A stretch of 64,000 nt of DNA from an uncultured Gammaproteobacteria bacterium (GTDB lineage Bacteria > Patescibacteriota > Patescibacteriia > Magasanikbacterales > GWA2-37-8), in assembly GCA_964536615.1 (NCBI GenBank), contig CAZHYG010000002.1:45000-108999 (forward strand), given 5' to 3'. This document shows positions 7,854 to 60,307 of this stretch, in pieces. The notes beneath the pieces were generated by a model. It was not told where the DNA came from. It ran no database searches and saw only the letters and a program-made list of their open reading frames with translations. The translations under genes and the position numbers were made by a program. How positions within the stretch are numbered: the first letter of the stretch is position 1; every line of letters begins with the position of its first letter.

Positions 7854-7943
7854 GGAGAGATGGCTGAGCGGTCGATAGCAACGGTTTACTAAACCGTAGT
7901 CCACGCAAGTGGACCCTGGGTTCGAATCCCAGTCTCTCCGCCA
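7854..7943 (+). tRNA. Type II tRNA (long variable arm), anticodon loop UUACUAA, apparent anticodon ACU (Ser-like, atypical A34)
   Basis: Acceptor GGAGAGA/TCTCTCC + G + encoded CCA; anticodon stem ACGGT/ACCGT at 7881-7897; long variable arm TCCACGCAAGTGGAC; T-arm GGGTTCGAATCCC. Confidence 0.7.
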
Positions 7944-7952
7944 AACACACCT

Positions 7953-8040
<88 letters not shown>

Positions 8041-9243: not shown

Positions 9244-9285
9244 ATACTATAAGAATATCCTTAACAAAAAAATAAAAATTAAACT

Positions 9286-10224
9286 CTAAGATAACGCACC
9301 GACAAGCATCTCCGCCATAGCATCCATATACCTGCGAGCATCATCCGATAAAGAAGGCACGCAAACTGCTGGGCGCGAATTTAGCTCAACAAGTTTAAAA
9401 CCTTGATCTGAATTAACAAAATCTGAAGCAAAAATACTTGGACGATACTGCGCTAACTGGAGATTAATTTGCTGAACCATAGCAAGCAATGCAGGGGGTA
9501 TTTGTTCTAGCCGAACCTGAACTTCGCTGCCTCCCTGCGAGACATTTGCCAAAAAAGAACCCGGTTTAGGCACTCGCACCAACATAAAAACCGGATTACC
9601 GTTGATAGTAATAACCCGAATGTCATGCAAACCATCTACAATACCCGGGATACCGACAGAGTTATCTATAAATTCCTGCAGCAAAACATCATTCCAATTA
9701 TCGTATAAGGATTCACTGATTTCGGATACTGGTCGTATATATATGCCTCGCCCGCCGGATAAAAAGTTTTTCTTTACAACAATTTTATCTGCTTGTTTTA
9801 ATTCCCATCCATTAACTACCTGTTCGTATTCTTTATATGAGTGGATGGCGGCGGTTTTAGGTGAAAAGTCTGGAAAAAGCTCAGCGGTAGCGACTTTATC
9901 AACGCAAATCTGATCTAAGTCAGGATGATTAATAATAGCACAATCGTAAATTGCAGGAATTGTATTCTTATCATCACGATTAAATATTAAATCTACGGCG
10001 ATTGGTTCATCTATCGCCACCATAACCCCATCTCGTATCTGCCAACCATTAGAAAACACTCCTTTTCCTACATAAGAATTACCGCGCACTATGTATACAG
10101 CAATATTATGCTGCTCGATATTTTTAACAAGACCTTGATACACTTCCCAGTAAGGATATACGGGAGAATTAAACGGATACCCCATTGGCTCCGGATCGGA
10201 AAAATAAATTGCTAATTTTTTCAT
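9286..10224 (-). CDS. RimK-like ATP-grasp ligase
   Basis: 'KIVVKKNFLSGGRGIYI', 'LVELNSRPAV' ATP-grasp signatures. Adjacent to a second ATP-grasp gene. Confidence 0.65.
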   Translation of the reverse strand: MKKLAIYFSDPEPMGYPFNSPVYPYWEVYQGLVKNIEQHNIAVYIVRGNSYVGKGVFSNGWQIRDGVMVAIDEPIAVDLIFNRDDKNTIPAIYDCAIINHPDLDQICVDKVATAELFPDFSPKTAAIHSYKEYEQVVNGWELKQADKIVVKKNFLSGGRGIYIRPVSEISESLYDNWNDVLLQEFIDNSVGIPGIVDGLHDIRVITINGNPVFMLVRVPKPGSFLANVSQGGSEVQVRLEQIPPALLAMVQQINLQLAQYRPSIFASDFVNSDQGFKLVELNSRPAVCVPSLSDDARRYMDAMAEMLVGALS

Positions 10225-10327
10225 AGTACCTATAACAATAACTCTAACTCCTCAACCTGTCAATTATATTATTGTCTGAAAAAACACCCTGTGATATAGT
10301 AGATTTCTAATCCAAGCTATTCATTTT

Positions 10328-11854: not shown

Positions 11855-11855
11855 T

Positions 11856-29500: not shown

Positions 29501-29757
29501 AATTTGAGAACAAAAAACGTAAGCTTGATACAAAAACCTGCCAACAAAAATAGCAGACCAGCAAATGCCTTGCCGATAGTTTCGCCAACACCACTTAACC
29601 AACCAGCTTGCGCAAACGGAGCAAAAACAAACCAACTAGTGATGATTGCGCTGGTAATTATAATAAAACTAACTAAGCCTAATTTTTTATGAGAACGAAA
29701 AAAAGACCAGAGCTGTCTGAAAATTAAACGCGCCTGTAGTGCAAATTGAGCAAACAT
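26569..29757 (-). CDS. VirB6/TrbL-like polytopic membrane protein with ~700 aa charged coiled-coil C-terminal extension
   Basis: N-terminal ~350 aa with multiple TM helices; then a long K/E/A-rich heptad-like region (KELQDLQIARARDKVLRDE..). Confidence 0.55.
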   Translation of the reverse strand: MFAQFALQARLIFRQLWSFFRSHKKLGLVSFIIITSAIITSWFVFAPFAQAGWLSGVGETIGKAFAGLLFLLAGFCIKLTFFVLKFIIEVAGYNGFIDSPAVTVGWVMIRDLTNMFFVVVLLMIAFGTILGLDHYEWKHMLVKLVTAAVLVNFSRLICGLIIDVAQIVMVTFLNGIAATASGNLVNMFQVDKIFKLGNGDNFTGDTASIFLASVAAIMFSVTMLITMLAFLFMIVARMAMLWVLIVVSPFAFVLNVLHQTEHFAGEWWGKFNSNVVSGPVIAFFLWLSFVTVGSGNIHDDIVKHNSLKQGQLLQESAAPAEEQTGITEVMSWENMGNFIIAIAILMAGAKMAEELGVAGAHMMGSASELGKKAAMYASGFQAAKWAGGKVGEGAKAAGKFAVMKMPLIGGEAWQRRGHNIKSRAAGWYYDRLAKSTVKAGEISKTFAVNEKGKYVKKVALRDEQGNIIKDEHGNIKYDTVDQKGLGDWAKRTFARARLEWGIGYGAFHKAYSEDLEATAEAKHEQLDHLASTSSLPIGMKKQKAKEWLHFLEHTGADIKAGKEANMELLREKIMHTLERGEERGKSEEEVDKELRELGLDDMDIFKARQGFDRFNKSMKSKAEAKVKKEYVGEEHKKQEVEKLEKYLHGNEGKELQGKSAEVRAETKRIEDELAAKKQIEELESIKELLKQGLEVTEPAKSKAMAEQLNFDVKELQDLQIARARDKVLRDENRSSEANNEQNTINNQVEERIKRHNAAGDYVQSDAKTTAQLARIEAQKKIIAGAKDEKSKKAAETVLRILERSLSEMQISNLGTHAAVADGIKGKILEAVGMSNAQSMELTPQAIRNLQAQDLAELINEKVDASSHASLEKALERLNEIYGDKANAMLEQKRLKNEKAAGQGSLGRAGLYKIDSATLKTVLVDAENKGDREYVAGRRKNGLSGSKLTNVIGFAGSMDRGVDGKLVVKSEDSKDIFVKLAVGLTGNNLGNVEEFTKGDIGAIFDNSSVPDLQDLLGRLEKQVPDKRGVEALLKFALETGRMKNGNNIKEVEEALKELNKRKK

Positions 29758-29950
29758 TTTTTAGCGATTATGTTGTATGCATTATACCATATTTTTAACA
29801 CGTCAACAACGCAAAAACATTAGTAAAAAATATGTGGATAAAAATATTATCGCGGGCTTGCATATTGCATTTTGGCATGGCCTATGTATAATACATATAT
29901 ACCTTTTTAGCGGCATATACGCGTATGCACTGTTTATGATGTGCTATAGA

Positions 29951-29979
29951 TTGACAAAATTGTTAAAAAGGTGTATACT
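29951..29979 (+). promoter_or_regulatory. Near-consensus sigma70 promoter TTGACA-17-TATACT
   Basis: TTGACA at 29951-29956, 17-nt spacer, TATACT at 29974-29979, in native AT-rich DNA pointing toward the GC-rich island. Confidence 0.45.
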
Positions 29980-29985
29980 TGTTAG

Positions 29986-30002
29986 TTATCCATAATGGAT
30001 AA
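29986..30002. promoter_or_regulatory. Perfect 17-bp palindrome TTATCCAT-A-ATGGATAA (candidate operator) at the predicted TSS
   Basis: 8-bp perfect arms around a single central base, 7 nt downstream of the -10 element. Confidence 0.4.
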
Positions 30003-30165
30003 TCGTTCTTTACAAAGTGCTGAAACGAGCAAAACTGCTAGTTTTAGCCAAATAATGAGTTACTACTGAAGACGCCTCTGGGCGAATATTTGCTTCTCTT
30101 CTAGACAAAGAGAGGTAGTTATTCGCCTAGAGGATTCAACTTCCCCCTCTGGGTAGGAGACCGCC

Positions 30166-30696
30166 ATGAGCAAGTCGTCCGTCAACAAGACCGCCGCGCT
30201 CGTGCGCGGCATCGTCCTGAGCATCCTCGTGATGCTCACCACCCTCCTCGCCGCCTGCGGCGGCGAGGACGACCCCATCGGCGACGCCACCACGTCGCCT
30301 GACGGCCCCGTCCAGCTGGACGGCGGCATCGACGCCATGTCGCCCCCCGATGCGCCGCAGCTGGACGTGTGCCAGCAACAGGACCCCCCTCCCCAGGGGG
30401 CGTACGTGATGAACGGAAAGAGCCTGCGGTGTGGCGCAAACGCCATGCCTGGAGACCACAACTCGTGGATCTTCGCCGGCTCCTCGGAGTTCTCCTGCAA
30501 CCTCGATGTCCACCCGGACACCGAAACGGGCGCAATTTGCGTCGTTCTGTGTGATGGGCACTTCGGCGCAGACTACACCAACCTGGTGGTGGAACGAGCG
30601 GGACTCCAAGGCCCCTACCGCTTCTACTACACCCCGCCGGGAGACGTGATGGAGTACGTGTGCTACGATCCGAGTACGCTCCCGTCTCAGTCGTAA
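30166..30696 (+). CDS. Small lipoprotein encoded in strongly GC-rich, foreign-composition DNA
   Basis: Signal peptide + 'LLAAC' lipobox; third codon positions almost all G/C; GGAGA RBS 8 nt upstream. Surrounded by AT-rich native sequence. Confidence 0.6.
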   Translation: MSKSSVNKTAALVRGIVLSILVMLTTLLAACGGEDDPIGDATTSPDGPVQLDGGIDAMSPPDAPQLDVCQQQDPPPQGAYVMNGKSLRCGANAMPGDHNSWIFAGSSEFSCNLDVHPDTETGAICVVLCDGHFGADYTNLVVERAGLQGPYRFYYTPPGDVMEYVCYDPSTLPSQS

Positions 30697-30760
30697 CTTT
30701 TGGGGCAGCTATCCGCGCTGCCCCGATCCGCTTAGTAGAAAAATAATTTTCTATTGAGCA

Positions 30761-30812: not shown

Positions 30813-33800
30813 TTAATTTGGCGTTACAACAACCTGCCCCGCAAATGGGGTGTACGCACCAATATTATCTTCACACTCATACTGAGGTATTGCGCCAACA
30901 GATCTATCGTAACACCCAACCCCACCTGAAGTTCCAGCAGATCCACAACTTCCATTACACCAACCCCAGTTATCTTTCAACTGTACAGCTGGTTTGAAGA
31001 CACAACATCCGCCATATAATGATTGGGTTTGCGCATCCGGACAAGTATTAGTCCAGCCGGTACCGTCGCGCGTACATTGATACACATGATCAAAACGGAA
31101 ATAGGCAGAGTCGCAAGTTTGTCCGATAATCTGACCAAAGCTTGGCGCCTTGCTTTCGGCTACACAATTATCCAAATACAAACAATCACTGCCCGACGAA
31201 CAATTTTTTCCGGTATCCAAATCGTATACACCTGCCGCGCCGGAAGAAATCATACACGTACCGCTGCTGCCGCAAATACCATTTACCGTACCGCGTTGAT
31301 TGCGGAAATAACCATCTAACGAAACTATATTGCCATCATTCCAGTCTAACTTAATTTTTTTCAACGGCATCTGATTTTTATCGGCAAAACCATAAAACTT
31401 AGCATTTACTACACCCACATTGGAACTAAACACAACATTACCGCTCGTTTTATCATTAACACTTATACCAGCGCTTAAACCTTCCAAACATTTACCTCCC
31501 GGCTTACAGGTGCCGAGCGGACGCACTTGCGGCGCGCGGTCTGGTGAAGATAATGTTTCGGTAAGATCATACGGACGAACCGCAGATGCATCACCAGCCG
31601 GCAACACACTGCTTATTTGCGTATTATTTTTATAGAAGAAGCCAGCAGATGGTGTCGAGCTAAGAGTCCAGTTCCATACACTGCTAATTTTGGCAAAAAT
31701 TTGCGAGAGGCTTGATTGCGCATCATCAAAATTACGCCCTGAAGCTTGGCCGGTTTGATCGGCGCGCGCGGAAGGATTTGTTTGCAAACAATTTCTGTCG
31801 GTACAAGCGTATGGAGAACCGACCGTTGCTGCAGGCAAAGCCGGAGTTGCGGCCGCATAATGAGAAAAAATTGAAATCAACTGATCCGGAACAAGCAAAC
31901 CTTGCATTGAGACACTGCCAAATGGTGAACCTGCTAAATTATTTTTATAATTTAATCCGGATGGATCTACGGCAAAATTACTTCTCTTCCACAAACGATC
32001 TGTCCAACCGACCGAAGTATATGGCGCATCTTTGGCTGTTTGCGCCACACTGGCACATGTTTCACGAAGACCCGCATATACATTAAATGTAGCATTTTCA
32101 AAATCAGTGCTTTCACCAGTAAAACAAACCAAACTTACATGATCAAGTTTTCCGCTCGCATCAAACATAGCTCGTATCGCACAACCATCATCATTATCAT
32201 CAACATTTTCATGTAAACAATTAGTTTGATAGTTATCGGCTCTTTCCACATCAACACTTCCACAATCTGCGCGAAGTAAATCTCTAAACTGAACTGCTGT
32301 TGTATCATACGGATCCGCATATTGATAATGCGGCAATGAAACCACGTCGCCCTGGCCATCATCCCATCGCATATACCACGCGCTTTTATCACGGCCATCA
32401 GACCAAACTTCTTGTCCGATATTTAACCCCGTTGCCTCTCCTGCAAATAACAACGATGAGTCGTTAACAAGATCTAAATTTGAACCATTGCCTGTAAAAA
32501 CTTGAGTTTGATTTGTATACTTACTTACATATCCATTTCTGATAAAAAATTTATTTGTACCATTAGGGAACCAGTCCGAATTTCCAGTTGCAGAAATCAA
32601 CAAATAATCAATTTCATCTCTGTAAACGGGCGTGCTAGCATTAACGGTCAACACCCTAATAGTACGATCATTTATCTGGTCGCTTTTTACCTCTTTGGTG
32701 CCTAATAATTTATCATAAATGGCAACATCACTACCCAACACACTTGTTACTGTTTGATTGCCTTTAGCATTTAAACAGTAGTATTTACCGGAGGCCTCAG
32801 TTGCTTGAAAACCAGCTTCCACATGCTGATTATTTATATCTAAAGCACCTGTAATACTGTCTTTAGGGAACCAGGTAAGACAAGCAAAACTTCCTTGTTC
32901 AGCATTTATCGGACGCGACAGATCTGGTTCAACGCAATATCCTTGCCAGCCAATGAGTTTGGACTGCTTCTTTAATTTTTGGCAAGTGCCGCCAGAACAA
33001 TCGCTATCAGTTGAACATACCTGATCAGCGTTATCTCCACCCACACAAATACCCGGCACAACACTCTTAAATATTTGCCCACTGCCACCAGCAATGCCCT
33101 GGCTATTCGGGTTATTGAAATTCCAATATCTTGTGAACGAATCACCGTATGATGCTTTGGTGTAACTACACTCGCAAGCATATGCCTTATCTCTGTCGGT
33201 GGTAGAGGTTGGCGATTCAGCACAGACGTTAACCGAGTTAAACAAGACTGAATTTTCTATATTGCTTGTATTTGGGAACGGGGATGTCTCCTCTGGATAC
33301 GCTCGGCAAGATGGCGAGATTGATTGACGAGGAGCGTTACTGGAAGCGTCATCTAAATTTTGCACACAGACTGGATTGCCTGCTCCCATACACACACCAA
33401 TGTTACTTCGACCGCAGGCCAGACCAACTGCATTTGATTTGCAGGCAGTGTTGTTTGGATTTGTGGTTTTACAATTTGCACCGCCGCCACAACCCATAGT
33501 TTTTGCCAAACGCCAATCGGTGTTTGTAGCACTGCCAACATTAACTTCGGATAATTCTTCCAACGGGAATGTATTTAAAATACTAAAGCCGCTAAAATCT
33601 TCTCCGCGCCAATCGGTACTTCGGTTGCGATACGCTGTTTCGGTCAATACTTGACCGCTCAAATCATGGGAATTATCAACCCAATTTGCACAATTAATAA
33701 GGCCATTACCTGTGGAACCTGAAACCTTATTACACCTTCCCACATCGTCACAAACCTCTTTATATGTGCCAGATTGGGGATCGAACACGCGATGCGAAGA

Positions 33801-36800
33801 TCGACACTGCAACCATTCGCCGCATTCTCTATCTCTACTTACTTTCAAAACTACATTAGCATCATTGACGGACGATCCTGAACCAGCAACCGGAGCAACC
33901 AATTCGCCATTTTGCGCTGTGCTGGCCGCATACGAAGCAGCTGTATTCCATAATTTATTTGGAGAATCTGTTTTATCAAACAAAACACAACCATTTTTTT
34001 CACTTACCTGGCCATTACATTGAGTCTGTTGCGATTTTAACTTATCGTCATTTATTAAATAATAAGTTTTATTATTTTCATTTCTGTCAATAAATTCGGT
34101 ACATCCGCTTTGCGCTGCGGCACATTCACCAACAAAATTACTGTATCTACCACTGTCACCATACGACCATAAGCCGTAATTATTGCCGGATTGCAGATAG
34201 CTTGGATAGCAAGCTTGCTCCCCCTTTCCCTGACATGTCGCGCCGCCTGTACAATCACTATCCGAAGAACATAATGCGGAACCTGACGATCCGCCGCCTT
34301 GGCAAACACCCACATCTTTCCAAAACCAACCATTATATTTAACACCATCTTTTACAACATTTTCTTTATAGGCACAAACTTTTTGACCGATAACTGCCGG
34401 ATCCTTAAAGAACAAAGATCCATTTGCCGAAGAATATGCGTTACATCCAACAGCCTCACTCTGACACAATGTTGTATCAAATGAAGCCGGATCTTTCTTA
34501 ATAAATACATCAGTATACACAGGTCCGGTCGGAGTTTCGGTAACTTTTCCGGCTTTGGAACAACCGACATCTACTGCGTTACAGGTTGTATTTCTGCTTG
34601 CAACCAAATATATTGGTGATGAAGTTGGTGTATCTGCTTGCACATACACAGTTGATGTGGAAACTACTCCGCCACCAGCAGTAATTTGAGCAATCGTAAT
34701 GCCGGTGGTATTAACATAACAACCGCTTTGGCCTAGCGCAACCTGGCATGTATATGAGGTTCCACCCATAATCTTTGTAACTGTTTGACCTTCCGGACCT
34801 GACAACCAAACATTATATGCGCGCGGTCCAGGATCATCAGGTGTATTGGCTGTATCAAAGAGAGCAGTGCAACCGATAGCATTTTCACGGCACAGCGAGG
34901 TGAAACCTGTTAAATATATTGAATTATTATCAGGTGTCTTGTATTGAGAGCAGCCAAGTGCTTCTCCTGGCAAGTTATCATTAACATTACTGTCGCATAC
35001 CGGATCAACTTTGAGCGTATTTTTTACCACATATATGTAATCGGAAATTTCTTTGAGGCTGACATTGTCTAAGAATAAACGGCCATTGACTATAAATTTA
35101 AGCTGAGTACTGCTAGCAGAGCCATTTAACTCTACTGGACCAAGATGATAGCTTTGCCAACTATCACCAACACTTACCGTACCCAGAGTTTGCACACTGT
35201 CATTTTCAAGAGTAACGGTTACTGTTTCTCCGGCAGATCCTTTTGCCCAGAAAACCAAATCATAACTTTGACCAGGCGTGAGAGATACGGTTTTAGATAC
35301 GAACTGTGAGCCCGTATATGACAATGAATGTTCGCCGGTGTGGGTTGATTCTAAAGATTGAGTTACTCCGTTAGCGCTCCAACCTGATAGAGCATCGCTT
35401 AATACTGACTGCTCAAAATTATTACTAAAAATATTGCGAACGTTATTGCCAGTATTGCCTTTGTACGCCCGACATGAACTTACTGTGGCTGCACAGGTCT
35501 TACTGGTTCCAGCCACATCTTGAGCACCGCCTGGCAAACCATAATAGAAACATTGCCCATCTCTATATTCACCGTTTTGGAAACATACTTGGCAAGTTTG
35601 CGTACCTGCATCAAATTTACCTTTATCCAAATCACATTTATCTTGACTTGAAGCTACTGTTTCCATTTCCGTGTCATTTAACCGATACGGAGTACACATG
35701 GTAGAAACCGTAATGGTTTTTGACAGCAATTTATAATAAACCTGTCCAGCATCATCGTTAAACTGCCGGCAATCCGGACTGGCTAGACCTGACTTATATA
35801 AAGACTCATTACATACTGCATCATAATCTTCTAACAAACGACTGCTGCGATAAAAATACTTTGGACTGCCATCAGAGTCTTGCTCCAACACAAATGATTT
35901 CAGTTGAAAACCGCCAACTGCAGAACCTTCGTAGGTATAAAATTTCTTTTGTTTGTTTGCGTCAGGCAAAATACATGGACGCAAATATGAGAAGTGCTCT
36001 ACTTTTTCCACGCCATTATTTGTATCACCTAAGTTGGTAAAGCTGGCACAACCTTCGTCAGCAGCGCTACATGCTGCGCCAGATGATGGGATAATATAGG
36101 CAACAGATTGGCCGCTAGAATAGCTGCTTGGCATTTCTTTGTATGCGCTATACCCGACACATCGAGCATCACATTGATCATTCCAAACAATTGCATCGTT
36201 TACAATTTGCGCAGGAGTAAATTTACCCGGAATACGATCTCCGCTATAGCTAGTCGGCTGATACCAGTTACAACTTACTTCATCGGCAATACATGCCGGG
36301 GCATAACTGCTGCATTCTGGTTTTGTTCCTAATTTATTCAAATCACTTGCGCTACGAGGCCAATCTACCGCAAGTGTTGATGTGTCTGTGTCATAACACT
36401 GAGCGTAATATGGCGCCTTCCGCAAATACAAATTATCTGCGGTACTGGCTGTTTTAAACGCACTACAACCATCTGAGTTGGCCGAACAATTTGTAGAAAC
36501 TTTATTATTAAAATAAATAACCGAATTTTCACCGCTGTTTATATCTGCCGGAGAGTAACCAGTCCATTGCCCCGAAGCATTCTTCTTTAAACTATACGCA
36601 GAGCAACCTACGGTATCTTGCGTACAAAAACCAGTATCCAACGTGCGATAGAGATAGCTGACGGTGACCCCATTGGCGTTTTGAAATGATTGGCAAGTGC
36701 GATACTGCGCATCGCATTTATTTGCATCAACTTTCCAAACATTTTTTTCTCTGGTGCAGTAACCTTGAGTGGCACAATTACCGTCTTTATCATAAGCGAC

Positions 36801-38426
36801 ACACGTGGTCATATCTACACATTCTTGGGTGCGATTAGCTGTGCCAGATAAAGCAGCTGGTGTAGAACCAAACGCCATAAAATTACAGGTGGCTGGAGGT
36901 GCTTTGATAACCCAGTTTGGATCAATGAGGTGACAGAATGGTTTATTTACAGGATCATTATCTACACCCACCACATTGCCATTTACGTCTTTAATAAAAT
37001 TACAGTCATTAAAACCATCAACCACTTGCTTGAGAGTCCAAGGCTTATCCGGATTGCTGTTTAACGTAGCGACCTCAAACCCAAGCGGCAAAATCCGCGC
37101 CTTACGCAATTTGGCAATGTTAGCATAACAATATGCGCGCTGATGACAGCTCGTGTCAGTGTTATCAGCGATGCGATCCGGGGACACAAGCTTCCATTCT
37201 CCGTGAAGCCAATTTTTTTCAATTGCTTCTCTTATAGTGACGGCCTTACCGACATTTGCTTCCTGTGCTGCTTGAGCTAACCCATTGTCTGCCACACAAT
37301 TTTCTGCGCTTGGGTTTGCTGGGCAGTTAGTGAAATTCAATAATAAATTATACTGATCAACACGCAGGTTAGGAGGGGTGAGCAGATCACTAAACAAAGC
37401 CTGCGCGGATTGTCTTCCGCCTCTGCCTAATTGACCTTCCAAACTACTAAGCGTATCTTGCAAAGTTTTACACCCTTCTCCACCCACACCGCCCACACAA
37501 ATTCCAAGAGGTAGCATGCCTTTTTCTTGCCAATTTTTTAACATCTGAGAAGCGAGCGTGTTGAAAAATAAAGAACCTGCGCTGGCAATACTGCCAATCG
37601 CTCCAGTGCCTAATGTGGCAAAAAATCCCGCTTCAGCAGATTTCTTTTGCTCGCTCGGATTTTGCGACTGCGCTTCTTCCGCAATATTTTTTGCCGGTGT
37701 TACAATCTCTCCCGAAATAAGAGTTGTTTTTGGATTGTACCCATCCCCCTCTTCGCGCTGCAGCTTAGCAGCTTCTGTTTGTTGAGCCACATAGTTATCA
37801 ATTTTTTCTGTGGCGCTAAGCAAAATACCCACATCTGTCTGCTCTAAAGAAAAAGCAACATTAAATTTACGGGCAATATCATCTGTGGAACCAAATTGAC
37901 TCTGCCAATTGCTGGCGCTTAACACTTCATTTTGAAAAGTTGACCAAGTACAAGTAGGTTTATTAACTCCTTGGGTTTGTGTATTAAGATTCGTATTAAG
38001 ATCCAAATATTTACGCGTCAAACCAATACGCATGGCCAAATCTATTTTTGGATCTGGGATTTTACATAAATTGAGGCCGTATGGAGAACCTAAAGCCTCA
38101 ATAGCCACACCGGCTGCATTATCCCCCACATCTTTCATGTAACTGCCGAAGTCTTTATATTGCGCGAACGGAGACTGGCCTTTATTGCCTGAGGCCAACC
38201 AAACAGCAGTATCATATGCAACTCGACGTAAAAAATATGAAAAAGACTGAATCGCAATATTTACCGCAGCGGTTTTAATAAAGCGTTCCGCCAAACTTGG
38301 TAAATCAGAAATAACTTCTACCGGGATTGCTTTGGCTGGACGAACATATAAAAACGAACCACCTACGCTTACAAATACAAAAATAAATAAAAGTATTTTA
38401 GTTGCGATTCTTTGAAACTTTGACAT
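30813..38426 (-). CDS. Giant (2537 aa) secreted Cys-rich cell-surface protein, putative adhesin with a beta-sandwich carbohydrate-binding-like region
   Basis: N-terminal signal/TM anchor; uninterrupted 7.6-kb ORF; many Cys pairs, Gly/Ser/Thr/Asn-rich; segment 'WQSYHLGPVELNGSASSTQLKFIVNGRLFLDNVSL' resembles CBM/LamG beta-sandwich modules. Confidence 0.6.
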   Translation of the reverse strand: MSKFQRIATKILLFIFVFVSVGGSFLYVRPAKAIPVEVISDLPSLAERFIKTAAVNIAIQSFSYFLRRVAYDTAVWLASGNKGQSPFAQYKDFGSYMKDVGDNAAGVAIEALGSPYGLNLCKIPDPKIDLAMRIGLTRKYLDLNTNLNTQTQGVNKPTCTWSTFQNEVLSASNWQSQFGSTDDIARKFNVAFSLEQTDVGILLSATEKIDNYVAQQTEAAKLQREEGDGYNPKTTLISGEIVTPAKNIAEEAQSQNPSEQKKSAEAGFFATLGTGAIGSIASAGSLFFNTLASQMLKNWQEKGMLPLGICVGGVGGEGCKTLQDTLSSLEGQLGRGGRQSAQALFSDLLTPPNLRVDQYNLLLNFTNCPANPSAENCVADNGLAQAAQEANVGKAVTIREAIEKNWLHGEWKLVSPDRIADNTDTSCHQRAYCYANIAKLRKARILPLGFEVATLNSNPDKPWTLKQVVDGFNDCNFIKDVNGNVVGVDNDPVNKPFCHLIDPNWVIKAPPATCNFMAFGSTPAALSGTANRTQECVDMTTCVAYDKDGNCATQGYCTREKNVWKVDANKCDAQYRTCQSFQNANGVTVSYLYRTLDTGFCTQDTVGCSAYSLKKNASGQWTGYSPADINSGENSVIYFNNKVSTNCSANSDGCSAFKTASTADNLYLRKAPYYAQCYDTDTSTLAVDWPRSASDLNKLGTKPECSSYAPACIADEVSCNWYQPTSYSGDRIPGKFTPAQIVNDAIVWNDQCDARCVGYSAYKEMPSSYSSGQSVAYIIPSSGAACSAADEGCASFTNLGDTNNGVEKVEHFSYLRPCILPDANKQKKFYTYEGSAVGGFQLKSFVLEQDSDGSPKYFYRSSRLLEDYDAVCNESLYKSGLASPDCRQFNDDAGQVYYKLLSKTITVSTMCTPYRLNDTEMETVASSQDKCDLDKGKFDAGTQTCQVCFQNGEYRDGQCFYYGLPGGAQDVAGTSKTCAATVSSCRAYKGNTGNNVRNIFSNNFEQSVLSDALSGWSANGVTQSLESTHTGEHSLSYTGSQFVSKTVSLTPGQSYDLVFWAKGSAGETVTVTLENDSVQTLGTVSVGDSWQSYHLGPVELNGSASSTQLKFIVNGRLFLDNVSLKEISDYIYVVKNTLKVDPVCDSNVNDNLPGEALGCSQYKTPDNNSIYLTGFTSLCRENAIGCTALFDTANTPDDPGPRAYNVWLSGPEGQTVTKIMGGTSYTCQVALGQSGCYVNTTGITIAQITAGGGVVSTSTVYVQADTPTSSPIYLVASRNTTCNAVDVGCSKAGKVTETPTGPVYTDVFIKKDPASFDTTLCQSEAVGCNAYSSANGSLFFKDPAVIGQKVCAYKENVVKDGVKYNGWFWKDVGVCQGGGSSGSALCSSDSDCTGGATCQGKGEQACYPSYLQSGNNYGLWSYGDSGRYSNFVGECAAAQSGCTEFIDRNENNKTYYLINDDKLKSQQTQCNGQVSEKNGCVLFDKTDSPNKLWNTAASYAASTAQNGELVAPVAGSGSSVNDANVVLKVSRDRECGEWLQCRSSHRVFDPQSGTYKEVCDDVGRCNKVSGSTGNGLINCANWVDNSHDLSGQVLTETAYRNRSTDWRGEDFSGFSILNTFPLEELSEVNVGSATNTDWRLAKTMGCGGGANCKTTNPNNTACKSNAVGLACGRSNIGVCMGAGNPVCVQNLDDASSNAPRQSISPSCRAYPEETSPFPNTSNIENSVLFNSVNVCAESPTSTTDRDKAYACECSYTKASYGDSFTRYWNFNNPNSQGIAGGSGQIFKSVVPGICVGGDNADQVCSTDSDCSGGTCQKLKKQSKLIGWQGYCVEPDLSRPINAEQGSFACLTWFPKDSITGALDINNQHVEAGFQATEASGKYYCLNAKGNQTVTSVLGSDVAIYDKLLGTKEVKSDQINDRTIRVLTVNASTPVYRDEIDYLLISATGNSDWFPNGTNKFFIRNGYVSKYTNQTQVFTGNGSNLDLVNDSSLLFAGEATGLNIGQEVWSDGRDKSAWYMRWDDGQGDVVSLPHYQYADPYDTTAVQFRDLLRADCGSVDVERADNYQTNCLHENVDDNDDGCAIRAMFDASGKLDHVSLVCFTGESTDFENATFNVYAGLRETCASVAQTAKDAPYTSVGWTDRLWKRSNFAVDPSGLNYKNNLAGSPFGSVSMQGLLVPDQLISIFSHYAAATPALPAATVGSPYACTDRNCLQTNPSARADQTGQASGRNFDDAQSSLSQIFAKISSVWNWTLSSTPSAGFFYKNNTQISSVLPAGDASAVRPYDLTETLSSPDRAPQVRPLGTCKPGGKCLEGLSAGISVNDKTSGNVVFSSNVGVVNAKFYGFADKNQMPLKKIKLDWNDGNIVSLDGYFRNQRGTVNGICGSSGTCMISSGAAGVYDLDTGKNCSSGSDCLYLDNCVAESKAPSFGQIIGQTCDSAYFRFDHVYQCTRDGTGWTNTCPDAQTQSLYGGCCVFKPAVQLKDNWGWCNGSCGSAGTSGGVGCYDRSVGAIPQYECEDNIGAYTPFAGQVVVTPN

Positions 38427-51319: not shown

Positions 51320-51592
51320 ATGTTATATATGATTAATGTGTTAAAAGTATACCATAAAAATGGCTAACAAAAAAGAGCGTTTCTATATGAAAGCTCTTTA
51401 ATATTAAAAGGATACTATATTTCAAAATAAAAGTCAAGCAATACTTAAATAAAATACCATGCATTGTTCTGTATGGTATTTAAAAATTTTTTACGAGATC
51501 TCCGTATCAAACCATACAAATGAATTATACAGCTTAATACAACACGGAGACCTCGTCATCTTTCTTACACCTACCCCTACTGCTAGTTCGGA

Positions 51593-52498
51593 CTACTTGA
51601 TGTAGTCGGGATGACGGTAGGACGGCATGACACCACCCTTCAAAAACGACATCTCTGGGTCGGTGTTTTCCGCCTGAGCAAAGAAGCTCTGGCGGACGAA
51701 CTTCGTCCCGAGCTTGTTCATATGGCGGATATGGCCCTCCGGGTCGACGTCTGGGTCGGGGGCCCGATAGACCCTGACACCATCACCCCTGGGGAGGATA
51801 GGCGCGAAACAGGGGCCGAAGGTGCGCGCCAGCCGGATGAGTGGCACGATCTCTTCCACGCCCGCATTGTCGTAAGCATAGAAGAGCTTGCCGCTTTCCC
51901 AGGCTTCCGCGCGGGACTTGATCGGCGCATCCTTCTTCGGCTTGGCGCTTCGAGCGTCGAAGCAACCCACCTGAACCAGCGACATGAGATGCCACATCGC
52001 GAAGGTGTTCGCAATGCGGCCCTGCATGATCGACTCGGTCAGCTCAGTGATGGCGAGTCCCATCGCGAGCGCGCCAGCTTCGGCGGCAGTGACCAGATCT
52101 TCCGCGGCTTCATTCGTGAAGTAGGCCTCGGCCTCCTTTGAAAGAACAATGCCGTAGTCACAACCGGCGCGGAGGAGCTTGGCCGTCCCGTAGTTCAAGA
52201 TGCCGACGAAGATGTCGCCGTGCTTGACCTCGGAAACGAACACACCCTTCCAGCCCTTGACCCGGATGGCCTCGCGCAGCTTGGGCGCGGTTTGGCCACA
52301 GTCCTTCTCGGCGTAGGCATCGTCCGTGGGGACGAGGATCTCGACGCGCGAGACGAACGAGCGTCCACCGACCTGAACGGACAGCATCCGCTCCACACTT
52401 GCCACCGCAAGAGCGACGGCGTTGTCGACCAGGTTTGGTTCACGAGCAAAACAGCGCAGGAGGGCGCCTACCTTCTTTGAATCGAGCAGCATGATCAT
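51593..52498 (-). CDS. Hypothetical protein encoded in GC-rich foreign-composition DNA
   Basis: Ala/Gly/Arg-rich with high-GC codon usage, unlike its neighbours. Start set at the ATG preceded by GGAG (MLLDSKK). No domain recognised confidently. Confidence 0.5.
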   Translation of the reverse strand: MIMLLDSKKVGALLRCFAREPNLVDNAVALAVASVERMLSVQVGGRSFVSRVEILVPTDDAYAEKDCGQTAPKLREAIRVKGWKGVFVSEVKHGDIFVGILNYGTAKLLRAGCDYGIVLSKEAEAYFTNEAAEDLVTAAEAGALAMGLAITELTESIMQGRIANTFAMWHLMSLVQVGCFDARSAKPKKDAPIKSRAEAWESGKLFYAYDNAGVEEIVPLIRLARTFGPCFAPILPRGDGVRVYRAPDPDVDPEGHIRHMNKLGTKFVRQSFFAQAENTDPEMSFLKGGVMPSYRHPDYIK

Positions 52499-52607
52499 CT
52501 CCAGATTGGTGGGCCCTTGGGGTTCTTTTCCCCTCGGGCACTCTGTCGATTTTCCCTCTAAAAAGAGAGGGGGCTTCATTACACACTTCTTTATATGTGT
52601 AACAAAG

Positions 52608-52640
52608 GAGCATACTACAAAAACCAGGCTTCGTCAAGCC
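52608..52640 (-). terminator. Rho-independent terminator downstream of the ComEC-MBL gene
   Basis: CAGGCTT-cgtc-AAGCCTG perfect 7-bp stem; on the minus strand it is followed by TTTTTGT. Confidence 0.5.
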
Positions 52641-52661
52641 TGATATAGAAAACAAAACCTA

Positions 52662-53567
52662 TTAAAACTCCACTATACTACCTATTAAATCGGTTCGGAG
52701 AATCTGTATCTGCGCCCTTTCCAATTTTCGCAAGACTCGCAAAGACGGGTGTCCGTATTTATTACGCGCACCTACAGAAATAACGGCTTCTTTGGCTTTA
52801 ACCGCCTTTAAAAAATTTTCTCCCGACGATGTGTCGCTGCCATGATGACCAACTTTAAGAACCCTTGCTTCCAGAGACGGGCAATCAAACGTAGATGTGT
52901 TCACACAATATTTGGCAAGCAAAGCGTCTTCCAGCGGCATTTCCATATCGGCGGTAAATAAAAAACTGCTGCTGGCATTAGTTAAACGAAATATAATGGA
53001 ATAATTATTACTATCATCGGCGCCAACAGACATATTCAAAGTTTTATCCGGAGATAAAAACTCCAAAGTAGAGCTGGCTATTTTCCACACTTCCGGAGCG
53101 TTAATGATTTGTGTCTGCGCCCGCTCGCCTGCCGCTGCCTGCTCAAATGTTTTATAAAAAGAATCCGGTTTAACATGTCCGTTAAGAATGATTTTTTTAA
53201 CTACATAGTTTCGCAGCACGTCCACACAGCCGCCATAATGATCCAAATCGGGATGTGTAACCAGCAGATAATCTATAGTGCGATCATAAAACCGCAACGA
53301 CTGGCCAAGCTGAGATAAAATTTTTCTATCCGGCCCGCAATCTACCAGCATCTGTTCTCCATTTGCAAAATCAATAAGCGTCGCGTCGCCTTGTCCGATA
53401 TCAAAAAAACTTACTTTAAACGCATGTCTGGCAGTTTCTTTATACAAAAAATAAATCAGCAAACCCACTGAGAACAACAATACAATACCGGCAATAATCA
53501 AAAGTTTTTTGCGTAACAGCATTGATTTAATATAATTACCAAGCGTATAATGTACCCATAGTATCAT
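52662..53567 (-). CDS. ComEC/Rec2-type metallo-beta-lactamase domain protein (stand-alone, N-terminal TM anchor)
   Basis: 'DIGQGDATLID', 'LLVTHPDLDHYGG' MBL motifs characteristic of the ComEC C-terminal domain. Confidence 0.7.
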   Translation of the reverse strand: MILWVHYTLGNYIKSMLLRKKLLIIAGIVLLFSVGLLIYFLYKETARHAFKVSFFDIGQGDATLIDFANGEQMLVDCGPDRKILSQLGQSLRFYDRTIDYLLVTHPDLDHYGGCVDVLRNYVVKKIILNGHVKPDSFYKTFEQAAAGERAQTQIINAPEVWKIASSTLEFLSPDKTLNMSVGADDSNNYSIIFRLTNASSSFLFTADMEMPLEDALLAKYCVNTSTFDCPSLEARVLKVGHHGSDTSSGENFLKAVKAKEAVISVGARNKYGHPSLRVLRKLERAQIQILRTDLIGSIVEF

Positions 53568-56836: not shown

Positions 56837-59800
56837 CTAAACCACGATACTAATTAATTTTCCTTTGACGTAAATAATTTTTTTCGGTTCTTTTCCTTCC
56901 AGCCATTTTTGCACTGCGGGACTAGCCAAGACAATTTCTTTGGCAGCAGCTTCGGTAATTTCTGCATCTACAGAAATTGCATCGCGCAATTTGCCATTTA
57001 TCTGCACCGCCAATGTAATTTCCTGCTCTTTAGTTAGAGCTTCGTTATATTCCGGCCAAACCTCTAAAGCAATGCTGCCGCTATTTCCCAATTGATTCCA
57101 TATTTCTTCGCATAAATGAGGCGCGAACGGAGATAATATTTTTACAAACAAAGCATAATCAGACGCGGCGATCTTTTCTTGCTTAGACATTTCATTTGCC
57201 AGCTCCATCATTTTAGCAATGGCCGTATTAAACCGCATATCATCAATATCTTCCGTCACTTTTTTTATAGTTTGATGCAAATACATTTGCGTCTTTGCGT
57301 CTGACGCGGCTGCGCCGCTGGTTTTTTCCTGCAACCCCCAGACTTTTTCCAAAAACCTTCGTACACCCACCAAACCATTAGTATCCCATTCCACCGCCTG
57401 ATCAAACGGGCCCATAAACATAATGTAAGTGCGCAAGGCATCAGCGCCAAATTGCCCCACCATTTCATCCGGGTTTACCACATTGCCGCGGGATTTACTC
57501 ATCTTTTCTCCGCCTTTTGCCAAAATCATGCCGTGCGATGTGCGTTTTTTGTACGGTTCACTGGTTGGCACAAAACCAACATCATACAAAAATTGATTCC
57601 AGAAACGCGAATACAACAAATGCAGCACCGTATGTTCCATGCCGCCATTGTACCAATCTACAGGCATCCACTGTTTTAATAATTCTTGATTCCAAAAATT
57701 CTGTTCTGCCAATCTTTTTTCACCGCCCAGCGCGTACGCCAAGAAATACCAGCTGGACCCGGCCCAATTTGGCATTGTATCTGTTTCACGCCGTGCTGCC
57801 CCGCCACAATTTGGACATTTTGTTTTTACCCATTTTTCCATAGCGGCCAATGGTGATTCACCTGTATCGGTTGGCTGATACTGTTCAACTTTAGGAAGTT
57901 TAAGCGGCAATTCGCTTTCTGGCAGCGGCACCCAGCCGGTGTTTTTAGCTGAAACAATAATCTCCGACAAAAAGCTGCCGGTATATTGATTAAAATGACC
58001 GAAACCATTTGTTTTATACAGATACCAATCTGATGGATATATTGAACGCGAGGGTTCGGGTACTTTCTCATCGTCTGCAGACCATACTACAGTTTTATTT
58101 TTTACTAATGAGGAAACCAGTTCAATATCAATTGGCGTTTCAATAAATAGTCGCAACAACTCAACACTGTCTTCGTGATCTGGATGATCTTTTTTTCTAA
58201 TATCCCAATATTGCTCTGAATATTTTCCAAATGCTGGCGCAATTAAATACAGTGAACCGATACGTTTTTTATTTTTTGCCAAAACGCTTAAAGCCGCGTG
58301 TCCGCCTAAACTATGCCCTATCACAATATCATTTTCACCCAACTGTTCGACATACTGTTTTAATTCTTCCATCCATTTTTCAAATACAGGCTCATCTTTC
58401 GTAGACATTACTGGCGCCATCACTTCAAAACCCTGCGCTTCAAGCTGTTTTTGCAGTGCGCCTGTAGTCACGCCAGAACTTCTAAACCCATGAATAAGCA
58501 ATACTTTTTGTTTTTTATTTTTACAGTGCTCGCAATACACAAGCGGAATCGGTTCACCCCAATACCGCTGGCGAGAAAATACCCAATCGCGCAATTTATA
58601 ATTTGTCTGCTTTTTGCCGATTTTATTTTTTTCCAGCCAGGCAACTATTTTTTCTTTAGCCTCATCTGAAACTAAACCATCAAATTCTCCCGAATTAACT
58701 ATTCTACCAGTTTCGGTAAATGGTTTATTTTTTATATAATGCTCAAAAAAAACTTTATGACTTGTGGCAAATGTAGGAAGTTTTAAAATCTCTTCAGCAC
58801 TCATCCAACCTCCTTTTACAGTTTCGGCATCAATTATTTCACGGCGAGCGTTACTACCTAGTTGAGCAACAAATACAGAATCGTGGCAAATTTCTTCACG
58901 AGATTTCCTTACTTTATAACCTCGACCATATGCATGCTCAAGCAGAGGTTTAATACTTTTAATATCTGTATAACCTGATTCTTCGGTAACTTCACGTGAA
59001 GCAGTATCTAAAACAGCTTCACCGGATTCAACATGCCCCCCAACAAAACCTTGTAATGCTTCAGAAAAATTAACTACATAAAACAATTCTTTGTCCCAAT
59101 GTTTAATAATGGTGGTAGCTGCACGAAACTCAATAATATTTTGATCACTGCGTGGAGCACCATCTCCAGTTTGCACAATATATGGTGCAACAACTTGTTT
59201 AATCGGCAGCCCAAACTTCTTTGCAAAATCAAAATCACGTTCATCATGCGCTGGCACGCCCATAAGCGCCCCCGTACCAACTCCACCCATTACATAATTG
59301 GTTACCCATACCGACACAGATTCTTTTGATACCGGGTTAACAGCCAATACATCCGTGCGTACACCGGTTTTTTCTTGCTCTTCACGCGTGGTAATTGCAG
59401 CGCGATTTTTTAATTCTTGATCAATATATTGCACCACTTCTGCGCTTGGCTTCCAACCGGCGTCCAGCCAGCTTTTTGCCAGCTCCGGAGAAATAGCTAA
59501 AAAAGTTACGCCAAAAATAGTATCGGGGCGCGTAGTAAACACGGTAACTGAATACGCGCCGTCAGCCTGACCCGGCACACGCAACGGAAACACCACTTCC
59601 GCGCCTTCGCTTTTACCAATCCAATTTTCCTGTTGCACGCGAGCGCGTTCAATATAATTTACATCTTTGAGGCCTTCCAATAATTTATCGGCATATTTGG
59701 TTATACCGAGCATCCATTGTTCTTTGTTTCTTTTTTCTACAGCTGTACCGCAACGCTCACAACAACCCCCAACCACCTCTTCATTAGCCAAACCAATTTT

Positions 59801-60307
59801 ATCTTTAGGGCACCAATTGATTGGCTGATTTTTTTTATATGCCAAACCATGCTTGTAGAATTGCAAAAACAACCACTGTGTCCATTTATAATAATTGGGA
59901 TCAGTAGTATCTACCTGCCTTGACCAATCAAAACCAAAGCCGAGCATTTTTAACTGCCGAGTAAAATTGGCAATATTTTTTTTGGTCACTTCGGCTGGCG
60001 GCTTGCCAGTTTTAATAGCAAAATTTTCGGTTGGCAATCCAAAGGCATCAAAACCAATCGGAAACAAAACATTTTTGCCCTCCATGCGTTTTTTACGAGT
60101 TATAACATCCATGGCGGTAAACGGACGCGGATGGCCAACATGCAAACCTTCACCACTCGGATATGGAAACTCAATCAGGCCATAAAACTTTTCCCCGGAA
60201 GGGATCCCTGCGGGACTTTGGGTATTTTCTGCAACCTCAAATGTTTTTTGTTTAGCCCAATATTTTTGCCATTTTGGCTCAATTTTTTTCGGATCGTATT
60301 TTTTCAT
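56837..60307 (-). CDS. leuS: Leucyl-tRNA synthetase with two large inserted domains (Nudix-box domain; GxSxG alpha/beta-hydrolase-like domain)
   Basis: HIGH 'HVGH', KMSKS 'KMSKS', CP1 editing domain, 'RDWVFSRQRYWGEPIP', 'RETDTM' all present. Extra ~160 aa with Nudix box 'GGHVESGEAVLDTASREVTEESGY' and extra ~200 aa with 'VIGHSLGGHAA'. Confidence 0.9.
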   Translation of the reverse strand: MKKYDPKKIEPKWQKYWAKQKTFEVAENTQSPAGIPSGEKFYGLIEFPYPSGEGLHVGHPRPFTAMDVITRKKRMEGKNVLFPIGFDAFGLPTENFAIKTGKPPAEVTKKNIANFTRQLKMLGFGFDWSRQVDTTDPNYYKWTQWLFLQFYKHGLAYKKNQPINWCPKDKIGLANEEVVGGCCERCGTAVEKRNKEQWMLGITKYADKLLEGLKDVNYIERARVQQENWIGKSEGAEVVFPLRVPGQADGAYSVTVFTTRPDTIFGVTFLAISPELAKSWLDAGWKPSAEVVQYIDQELKNRAAITTREEQEKTGVRTDVLAVNPVSKESVSVWVTNYVMGGVGTGALMGVPAHDERDFDFAKKFGLPIKQVVAPYIVQTGDGAPRSDQNIIEFRAATTIIKHWDKELFYVVNFSEALQGFVGGHVESGEAVLDTASREVTEESGYTDIKSIKPLLEHAYGRGYKVRKSREEICHDSVFVAQLGSNARREIIDAETVKGGWMSAEEILKLPTFATSHKVFFEHYIKNKPFTETGRIVNSGEFDGLVSDEAKEKIVAWLEKNKIGKKQTNYKLRDWVFSRQRYWGEPIPLVYCEHCKNKKQKVLLIHGFRSSGVTTGALQKQLEAQGFEVMAPVMSTKDEPVFEKWMEELKQYVEQLGENDIVIGHSLGGHAALSVLAKNKKRIGSLYLIAPAFGKYSEQYWDIRKKDHPDHEDSVELLRLFIETPIDIELVSSLVKNKTVVWSADDEKVPEPSRSIYPSDWYLYKTNGFGHFNQYTGSFLSEIIVSAKNTGWVPLPESELPLKLPKVEQYQPTDTGESPLAAMEKWVKTKCPNCGGAARRETDTMPNWAGSSWYFLAYALGGEKRLAEQNFWNQELLKQWMPVDWYNGGMEHTVLHLLYSRFWNQFLYDVGFVPTSEPYKKRTSHGMILAKGGEKMSKSRGNVVNPDEMVGQFGADALRTYIMFMGPFDQAVEWDTNGLVGVRRFLEKVWGLQEKTSGAAASDAKTQMYLHQTIKKVTEDIDDMRFNTAIAKMMELANEMSKQEKIAASDYALFVKILSPFAPHLCEEIWNQLGNSGSIALEVWPEYNEALTKEQEITLAVQINGKLRDAISVDAEITEAAAKEIVLASPAVQKWLEGKEPKKIIYVKGKLISIVV

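Follow-up and report, generated by a model that had tools for sequence, protein, structure and literature searches.

A GC-rich, leader-preceded gene for a GT-A-like protein, inserted beside nusA in a Patescibacteria subclade, appears to be old and to keep its codon usage

The 64,000-nucleotide stretch of contig CAZHYG010000002.1 analysed here, referred to as the window, has the gene content of a Patescibacteria (Candidate Phyla Radiation, CPR) genome and a GC content of about 41%. In a block from about 51560 to 52580, located between a metallo-beta-lactamase (MBL) family gene and nusA, the GC content rises to 57–61%. The block carries one open reading frame (ORF), whose product, called here the GT-A-like protein, is predicted to have the GT-A fold of glycosyltransferases (GT). 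An earlier note, written from the letters of the window alone, had regarded the block as newly imported foreign DNA. The explanation that we favour, with a probability of roughly 0.6, is a different one: an old, vertically inherited unit controlled by an RNA leader, whose GC-rich codon usage is maintained, presumably via selection on the transcript.

The ORF occupies positions 51593–52498 of the minus strand. Its GC content is 0.608, compared with 0.408 in the remaining window, and the values for the first, second and third codon positions are 0.63, 0.42 and 0.77. With a third-position GC content (GC3) of about 0.76 it ranked first among the 42–51 ORFs of the window (median 0.36, standard deviation 0.05–0.08). 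Continuous GC of at least 0.55 was found at only two places in the 64 kb, at 51.6–52.55 kb and at 30.1–30.75 kb (island 1). The extreme feature of the GT-A-like ORF is its synonymous codon usage. All 18 Lys codons are AAG, a codon with a genome-wide share of 18%; AAA, ATA, ACA, TTA, CTA and AGA do not occur at all; and A is found in 6.6% of third positions versus 28% in the genome. The shift in amino-acid composition is mild (Ala 12.0% versus 8.8%, Arg 6.3% versus 3.9%). The strong anomaly described in the earlier note (60% GC at 51.56–52.6 kb), the single minus-strand ORF and a codon usage unlike that of the neighbours were therefore all recovered, but the label 'Ala/Arg-rich' suits the protein only mildly. 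An antisense gene was rejected as the source of the GC-richness: the antisense ORF in the window is broken, with 176 aa versus 236–303 aa in relatives, and the long antisense ORFs are a by-product of the avoidance of TTA, CTA and TCA codons.

The GC excess was followed in related loci and contigs, which carry labels such as L001, L003 and L008 (L014 and L009 denote one locus, as do L019 and L006). In 39 loci, drawn from many Patescibacteria lineages, the GC content of the GT-A-like gene was compared with that of its flanks and was higher in 37, on average by 10 percentage points and also in hosts of 55% GC; in at least 25 of 36 loci no ORF nearby has a higher GC3. Comparison of the window with L011 indicates that about 82% of the four-fold degenerate sites have turned over, as they have in nusA, groEL and yidC, and despite that turnover the GC content at four-fold sites (GC4) of the GT-A-like gene is still 0.72–0.79 (0.72–0.84 overall where more than 80% of these sites have turned over), compared with 0.31–0.58 in its neighbours. 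With L008 as outgroup, synonymous changes along the branches to the window and to L001 were polarised into strong-to-weak (S>W) and weak-to-strong (W>S) ones. The GT-A-like gene had 12 S>W changes at 298 S sites and 11 W>S changes at 69 W sites, which implies an equilibrium GC3 of 0.80; the corresponding figures for 12 neighbouring genes were 78 changes at 1834 S sites and 75 at 3475 W sites, with an implied equilibrium of 0.34. At the neighbours' rates about 8.5 S>W changes would be expected for each W>S change, and the observed 12:11 departs from this with a binomial p = 7e-6. Each of the two branches alone is close to 1:1 (5:5 and 7:6), so the result survives even if one of the alleles had been imported. 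Other, deeper triplets gave implied equilibria of 0.50–0.79, all well above the host value, although parsimony is a weaker guide at that depth. On the deep branch that separates the window clade from L003/L014, too few sites could be polarised (4 S>W and 0 W>S changes). At the same junction L008 has acquired a canonical GT2 gene, whose GC3 of 0.31 is host-like. These data showed that the GC-rich synonymous usage is stationary at a GC3 of about 0.8 on the recent branches, and the earlier proposal of a foreign signature that has not yet ameliorated is at odds with the 12:11 ratio.

Horizontally acquired genomic islands reportedly undergo amelioration, according to the model of Lawrence and Ochman. 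Such islands resemble the GT-A unit in being sharp in composition, inserted relative to sister lineages and built of a single accessory gene. They differ from it in that the GT-A unit is old and vertical, lacks mobility genes, a tRNA target and a convincing target duplication, and shows balanced recent synonymous changes together with a family-wide excess. Other parallels are gene-specific selection on composition, GC-biased gene conversion and the bldA/TTA codon-gated regulons of Streptomyces, in all of which a synonymous composition is held away from that of the genome. In contrast to those cases, the GT-A-like gene exceeds its AT-rich, reduced genome by 0.4 in GC3, which is unusual in direction and size, highly expressed genes are not likewise shifted, and the effect is coupled to one RNA leader. 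Conventional translational selection was rejected since groEL and nusA are not shifted (groEL GC4 0.43). The maintaining force could be selection on the mRNA, GC-biased gene conversion or gene flow from GC-richer relatives.

All six of the nearest lineages carry the GT-A-like gene at the same MBL–nusA site, with protein identities to the window of 93% (L001), 89% (L008), 83% (L015), 80% (L011 and L012) and 79% (L051); the gene is thus present in, and not absent from, close relatives. The exact protein of the window, with the same MBL and nusA junctions, was found in four independent assemblies, which excludes a chimera and agrees with the earlier opinion that the block is not random contamination. 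A metagenome scan with NusA revealed empty sites in at least 10 related contigs with 83–88% identical NusA, including L054, L055, L057, L058, L060, L063 and L074. In these the MBL stop codon and the nusA promoter/leader lie within about 95–120 bp of each other, with no gene, leader or 3' hairpin. The empty sister sites identify the block (about 51440–52660) as a genuine insertion that defines a subclade. An insertion between the MBL gene and nusA had been proposed before and is borne out, in that the block lies between the MBL stop and the nusA promoter; the notion that it interrupts the nusA upstream region is not, as neither the promoter nor the leader hairpin of nusA is disrupted.

Identity at four-fold degenerate sites between the window and L001 is 0.85 for the GT-A-like gene, 0.85 for nusA and 0.93 for groEL; the values are 0.68, 0.72 and 0.70 for L008, and 0.45, 0.42 and 0.42 for L011. 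This showed an insertion in the subclade ancestor followed by vertical inheritance with co-divergence. A recent or active import, as suggested in the earlier note, disagrees both with the occupation of the same site in at least six lineages and with a synonymous divergence equal to that of the neighbours. The same note had reasoned that a related genome with the same locus would make the anomaly ancestral; the gene is indeed shared at the locus, but what the relatives share is the anomalous and not a native composition. No integrase or transposase was found among the Pfam annotations of the neighbours at occupied loci, and the only tRNA genes of the window, at 7.85–8.04 kb, offer no target at the insert. 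The only flanking direct repeat is an AT-rich one of 30 nt with 70% identity (51402–51431 and 52660–52689, spacing 1258 bp), which could be the remnant of a target duplication or a chance likeness of promoter-proximal AT-rich DNA. The matrix of protein identities is star-like, with the L003 and L014 copies closest to all others (81–88%) and the same-site copies 74–84% identical to one another. The matrix agrees with one spread of a single allele group through diverged Moraniibacteriota-like lineages, at around the time when the nusA-site insertion arose, and leaves room for later allele exchange, as L015 is closer to the window in the GT-A-like gene than in nusA.

The MBL–nusA spacer is a recurrent insertion site. 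The canonical GT2 gene of L008 (9068–9970) lies between the MBL gene and the GT-A unit, and other uncharacterised DNA of 1–2 kb is found in the spacer of L053 (3861–6001), L056 (4965–6001), L061 (4843–6001) and L066 (5022–6001). Several records of metagenome-assembled genomes (L014, L015, L016, L017, L022 and others) are titled 'uncultured Bdellovibrionales' or 'uncultured Gammaproteobacteria'; synteny with Moraniibacteriota contigs (L014 and L017 versus L018 and L019) suggests that these titles are placeholders or errors.

The anatomy of the inserted DNA showed that the block is a self-contained single-gene expression unit, with a promoter, a structured leader, a coding sequence (CDS), a 3' hairpin and a terminator-like hairpin (Table 1). 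The transcription start is the one expected from the predicted promoter. A TTGACA-N17-TATAAT promoter is found at an equal distance in nearly every member of the GT-A-like family. The flanks of the CDS contain, in five same-site genomes, long invariant non-coding stretches despite nearly saturated synonymous sites. Both inverted repeats reported earlier exist, at 51493–51505/51544–51556 and at 52574–52585/52596–52607, but the idea that they are the ends of a mobile element was not supported: each of them is a conserved, covarying RNA hairpin with no relation to the other, and since they do not match and no mobility gene is near, they are not element termini. The fold of the 3' hairpin has a z-score of −5.9 and includes a G.U pair that is possible only on the sense RNA. 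Its arms are invariant in the five aligned same-site genomes, and L012 and L051 have the exact arm pattern as well. It is absent from the glyco-locus copies and from the empty sites; the latter led us to reject it as part of the nusA leader, and its single copy in the window as a dispersed repeat. The nusA leader itself has a hairpin and U-run at 51365–51406 (AAGAGC...GCTCTTTTTT), located between promoter and start codon at occupied and empty sites (L055, L059), and this looks like an attenuator.

Table 1. Elements of the inserted unit and its borders, in window coordinates (SD, Shine-Dalgarno sequence; UTR, untranslated region)
Feature	Coordinates	Strand	Remarks
Whole inserted unit	51440..52660 (approximate limits)	-	From empty sister sites versus aligned occupied sites
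Terminator-like hairpin of the upstream MBL gene, AGGCTTGACGAAGCCT + T-run	52623..52644	-	Invariant in 5 genomes; holds the -35 box of the cassette promoter
Sigma-70-type promoter, TTGACG, 17-nt spacer, TATGCT	52609..52637	-	Predicted; TATAAT in L011 and L015
Structured 5' leader RNA, P1–P4, about 108 nt	52497..52604	-	From predicted transcription start to SD; covariance models
P1 hairpin, previously described as an imperfect palindrome	52578..52603	-	About the predicted 5' end of the transcript; 6/6 pairs vary with compensation
P2 hairpin, CCCUCU...AGAGGG	52554..52571	-	5/5 pairs with double changes
P3 hairpin, GCCC-GA-GGGG / CCCC-AA-GGGC, loop AAAAGAA	52513..52539	-	Fold and covariation
P4 helix	52499..52545	-	CAGA 52542–52545 pairs with UCUG 52502–52505; overlaps the first G of the SD GGAG 52499–52502
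CDS of the GT-A-fold, glycosyltransferase-like protein	51593..52492	-	299 aa (301 aa from ATG 52498); GC 0.61, GC3 0.77
Long 3'-UTR hairpin, previously described as a spaced repeat	51493..51556	-	Arms of 13 nt, 92% complementary, 38 nt apart
Terminator-like hairpin closing the unit	51452..51481		Just upstream of the nusA promoter
nusA promoter, TTGACT, 17-nt spacer, TATCCT, with leader hairpin/U-run	51365..51437	-	Context outside the insert; also at empty sites

The start codon had been placed at the ATG that follows GGAG. This arrangement is present, with GGAG directly abutting ATG 52498 (spacer 0), but the ATG at 52492 is the likelier start, because it has a normal spacer of 6 nt from GGAG and agrees with the family N-terminus 'MLL'. 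A 328-aa reading from 52579 overlaps the RNA leader, as do the 326–339-aa gene calls of relatives. Public gene calls (P0001, P0002, P0020, P0022 and P0037, from L001, L008, L011 and others) often have this length of 326–339 aa; their start is an in-frame ATG within the structured leader, so the extra 27–38 residues or so are probably not translated.

The leader was identified in the window with scores of 95 bits (covariance model R1) and 85.8 bits (R2). Its minimum free energy is −40.9 kcal/mol (z-score −4.5). In the alignment 96.8% of cells were paired and 12 of the 18 pairs showed double (compensatory) changes; none of 500 shuffles reached as high a value, and slid controls gave 34–50%. When distant members were included, 91.3% of cells were paired and 20 of 22 pairs had compensatory changes. 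No match to Rfam 15 was found at E ≤ 1 in a scan of 49.5–54 kb. P4 encloses P3 and a conserved unpaired loop, YYACCAA, and its strands covary across relatives (CCGG/CUGG, CCAG/CUGG, CCAA/UUGG and CAGA/UCUG). By pairing with its first G(G), P4 is predicted to sequester the SD in part.

The covariance models were run over about 1.35 Mb of loci, and strong matches were found only directly upstream of the GT-A-like gene or of three other GC-rich ORFs; the position is that of a 5' UTR between predicted promoter and start codon. Model R2, which includes P4, gave weak matches exactly upstream of the GT-A-like gene in seven distant members, and by eye a promoter, a hairpin and YUACCAA-N-GGAG could be recognised in most members of the family. 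A search of IMG/VR with the leader pattern gave no match. L018 contains two leader copies. The three other ORFs belong to L003, where a tandem array (8627–12746) contains a 224-nt terminator-promoter-leader repeat four times, with two copies 100% identical. Downstream of the repeats lie four unrelated, co-oriented ORFs, encoding 306 aa, the GT-A-like protein, 278 aa and 148 aa, and all four genes have a GC3 of 0.81–0.85 in a genome with a median of 0.64. Pfam and PDB searches with the three ORFs besides the GT-A-like gene gave no match; the 278-aa one has a stretch that by eye resembles a Nudix box. Since the close relative L014/L009 lacks the three extra units, modules of leader plus ORF are gained and lost between close relatives. 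Across the family, members with the leader motif have a median GC excess of +0.12, compared with +0.05 for those without it or with an ambiguous one (Mann-Whitney p ~0.001), and the motif is missing from all seven members whose excess is below +0.05.

Among known systems, the leader resembles translational riboswitches and other SD-sequestering leaders, including RNA thermometers, in being a conserved multi-helix 5' UTR with strong covariation. The conserved unpaired YYACCAA beside the SD-pairing helix and the occurrence of one leader before several genes, as in a regulon, add to the likeness. It differs from them in matching no Rfam 15 family and in an SD occlusion that is partial and predicted. 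The L003 array also recalls integron cassette arrays, with four unrelated ORFs of the same orientation, each after a near-identical structured repeat, and with a cassette content that differs between the close relatives L003 and L014. In contrast to integrons, the L003 repeat consists of a terminator, a promoter and a 5' UTR ending at the SD, with no attC, and each cassette has its own promoter; no integrase Pfam was detected in the annotated loci, and no R/L core sites were found.

A search of 5.8 billion proteins yielded 98 homologues of the GT-A-like protein, of about 300 aa and constant length, with identities down to 36% and all without Pfam domains. All homologues with a meaningful name belong to Patescibacteria (Moraniibacteriota, Paceibacterota, Kerfeldbacteria and others). 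When 1.84 billion representatives were searched exhaustively with a profile, 280 clusters were recovered (252 at E ≤ 1e-10); the family is thus small, and as a discrete group it stays separate from the large GT2 superfamily. The AlphaFold2 (AF2) model, with a predicted local distance difference test (pLDDT) score of 93, is of the Rossmann-like alpha/beta/alpha type, and the modelled fold is that of a GT-A glycosyltransferase. Pfam, NCBIfam and PADLOC gave no match at E ≤ 1, and PHROGs gave only a PHROG of unknown function at an E-value of 0.31. Searches of PDB sequences with the single sequence and with a profile found no structure match, only YbgL at an E-value of 0.15. An hhalign comparison with the neighbouring GT2 had a probability of 0.2, and the sequence did not fall into a curated GT family such as PF00535. 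Compared with GT2-type GT-A enzymes (the Pyrobaculum mannosyltransferase PcManGT, PDB 6YV7; BcsA; mannosylglycerate synthase), the protein is only 9–12% identical, and unlike them its family has no Pfam or NCBIfam match, no evident DxD motif and named members from Patescibacteria only. The usual DxD position reads S120-x-E122; in the family alignment an invariant S120 is followed by x-E/G/D at the end of strand 115–119, and this suggests that the chemistry may differ from that of canonical GT2 enzymes. The invariant acidic residues of the family are D59, D66, D95, E152, D181, E215 and E216.

No relatives of the protein were found in IMG/VR or in phage and plasmid collections, and the possibility, raised earlier, of a capsid-like or phage- or plasmid-associated protein does not agree with this or with the GT-A fold. 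In L003, L014 (L009), L017, L018 and L019 (L006), and in the distant L013, L028 and L047, the gene lies among genes for PMT, GT2, GT4, UDP-glucose dehydrogenase and epimerase. Such a glycosylation locus is probably the original home of the gene, and, to judge from the genes around it, the enzyme may act in the metabolism of nucleotide sugars or of cell-envelope glycans.

Island 1 carries an ORF on the plus strand (30166–30696) for a predicted lipoprotein of 176 aa with a GC3 of 0.85. Only five homologues were found, and Pfam and PDB searches gave no match. The ORF belongs to a monocistronic unit (29949–30725) with a TTGACA-17-TATACT promoter at about 29949–29978, a highly structured leader of about 185 nt (z-score −5.5) with no relation to the GT-A leader, and, at about 30702–30724, a GC-rich terminator hairpin. 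Relatives have island 1 at the same locus, and at 60% protein identity its GC3 is still 0.68, compared with a flanking GC of 0.40. Island 1 is likewise ancestral and persistently GC-rich, so the islands reflect a shared property of a special gene class and not, as had been thought, two independent imports through an active route. The two islands are one syndrome: monocistronic, with a long structured leader, ancestral and persistently GC-rich. Island 1 lies between a 1062-aa ORF (26569–29757) and a Cys-rich 2537-aa ORF (30813–38426); the latter is probably a surface protein, with a weak CBM_4_9 match in a relative. A small GC bump near 7.9 kb is due to two adjacent tRNA-Ser genes (7854–8040) with the anticodons ACT and GCT, of which the A34 (ACU) serine tRNA is unusual. 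The leucyl-tRNA synthetase (56837–60307) has 1156 aa, and Pfam annotation of relatives shows HAD_2 and Ser_hydrolase between the synthetase domains.

Four other explanations of the GC-rich block were weighed. An artefact, in the form of an assembly chimera, contaminating reads or a spurious ORF over a GC-rich non-coding RNA, has nothing in its favour beyond the compositional contrast itself; given the exact protein and junctions in four independent assemblies, the relatives from many samples, the conservation to 36% identity at constant length and the pLDDT of 93, its probability is negligible. The reading of the earlier note, a recent import from a high-GC organism or on a mobile cassette, phage or plasmid with the repeats as its ends, is very improbable and has been largely refuted. 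It accounts for the strong contrast in composition, for the true insertion relative to sister lineages, for the other inserts in the MBL–nusA spacer (the GT2 gene of L008 and the 1–2 kb of L053, L056 and L061) and for the tandem array of leader-plus-ORF units with 224-nt repeats in L003. Against this stand the occupation of one site with co-divergence in at least six lineages, the lack of a net S>W decay on the recent branches, the repeats that are unrelated conserved RNA hairpins, and the absence of an integrase or transposase among the Pfam-annotated neighbours. Nor was there any sign of a high-GC host, phage or plasmid as donor: the named homologues are all Patescibacteria, and IMG/VR and the phage and plasmid collections gave no match.

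GC-biased gene conversion, by which a recombination hot spot or exchange with other leader-bearing copies would drive GC upwards, appears improbable to us. The per-site W>S rate of the GT-A-like gene is about 7-fold that of its neighbours with S>W unchanged, the MBL–GT-A–nusA tract has diverged further between the window and L001 than have yidC, groEL or prfA, a pattern suggestive of recombination, and the 100% identity of L003 leader copies over 224 nt indicates conversion between them. Yet nusA and the MBL gene in the same putative tract keep a host-like composition, with an implied equilibrium GC3 of about 0.31 for nusA, and GC drops abruptly to 0.27–0.31 where the transcription unit begins and ends. 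The CDSs of different cassettes are not homologous and so lie beyond the reach of conversion between copies, and a population-scaled conversion coefficient of about 2 would be needed. Such a coefficient is large for bacteria. A source-sink gene flow, in which alleles from GC-richer Moraniibacteriota-like relatives (L003/L014/L017, genome GC 0.47–0.55) repeatedly replace the copy at the nusA site, we consider unlikely as the whole explanation. It would explain why the L014 protein is 87–88% identical to those of the window and L001 when the same-site L011 and L051 reach 79–80%, why four-fold identity between the window and L014 (0.67) is similar to that between the window and L008, and why L017 and L018, about equidistant from L003 by neighbour genes, are 82% versus 60% identical to it in the GT-A-like protein; the incongruent GT-A and nusA distances of L015 and the range of GC3 among same-site copies (0.60–0.84) also agree with it. 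In the GC-richer hosts too, however, the gene lies about 0.2 above the genome median GC3, so that no examined member of the clade is 'native' in composition, and distant subfamilies in unrelated low-GC hosts have the same excess, so that gene flow may contribute but cannot account for everything. The leaders track the type of locus and not the CDS relationships, same-site synonymous divergence equals that of the neighbours, and a star phylogeny with unequal rates explains the identity matrix without recent transfers.

In the explanation that we favour, the unit entered the site between MBL gene and nusA promoter in the ancestor of the subclade, and the donor was plausibly a related Moraniibacteriota-like lineage with the gene in a glycosylation locus. 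A force acting on the transcript would then keep A and U out of third positions, and its most likely form would be a long-lived, tightly regulated mRNA with a 5'-terminal hairpin, an A/U-depleted body and 3' hairpins. A hairpin at the 5' terminus impedes RNases that depend on the 5' end. The partly hidden SD would fit such a controlled transcript, with the leader as a translational switch. Alternatively, translation may be controlled through codons, all Lys codons being AAG in a genome that prefers AAA.

Several observations weigh against this explanation. The polarised test rests on 23 substitutions, and longer branches have more S>W than W>S changes (14:5 and 50:16); some slow decay of GC may be taking place there, and parsimony is unreliable at that depth. 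The GC3 of same-site copies spans 0.60–0.84. The star-like gene tree, with copies of the higher-GC hosts L003 and L014 at its centre, could also result from acquisition of the gene from GC-richer relatives or from exchange with them, and the GT-A-like gene and nusA give differing relationships for L015. The association between leader and GC is uncorrected for phylogeny and its motif classes were set post hoc. In model alignment A9 only 73.9% of P4 cells are paired; this alignment does not accommodate a register shift of the window clade in P4. As there is no evident DxD motif, glycosyltransferase activity of the protein is not assured.

More tentatively, the unit could belong to an undescribed Patescibacteria regulon of single-gene units, each with its own promoter, an SD-sequestering, riboswitch-like leader and a CDS recoded to be GC-rich, with the GT-A-like enzyme as its core in surface glycan synthesis; we regard this as possible but doubtful. 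The literature searched contained no description of the GT-A-like family or of the leader, and none of GC-rich classes of genes in Patescibacteria; judged by that literature and by the libraries searched, the protein family, the leader RNA and the maintained composition all seem not to have been described.

Compositional islands are routinely taken as the result of recent horizontal transfer. The GT-A unit looks foreign by every visual criterion and yet is old, vertical and stationary in its composition; it is a concrete counter-example, and it calls for caution when islands are identified in reduced, AT-rich genomes; ordinary models of gene transfer do not predict such a maintained GC content. 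The leader RNA has no Rfam counterpart and precedes several different unannotated genes, and a link between leader and GC would make the debated selection on GC content testable on a defined set of genes. If the regulon exists, base composition would be a mechanism of control, through the longevity of the mRNA or through translation gated by tRNAs or their modification, and not a trace of ancestry. The presence of the GT-A-like family in glycosylation loci bears on the surface chemistry of these episymbionts, which probably matters for their attachment to hosts.

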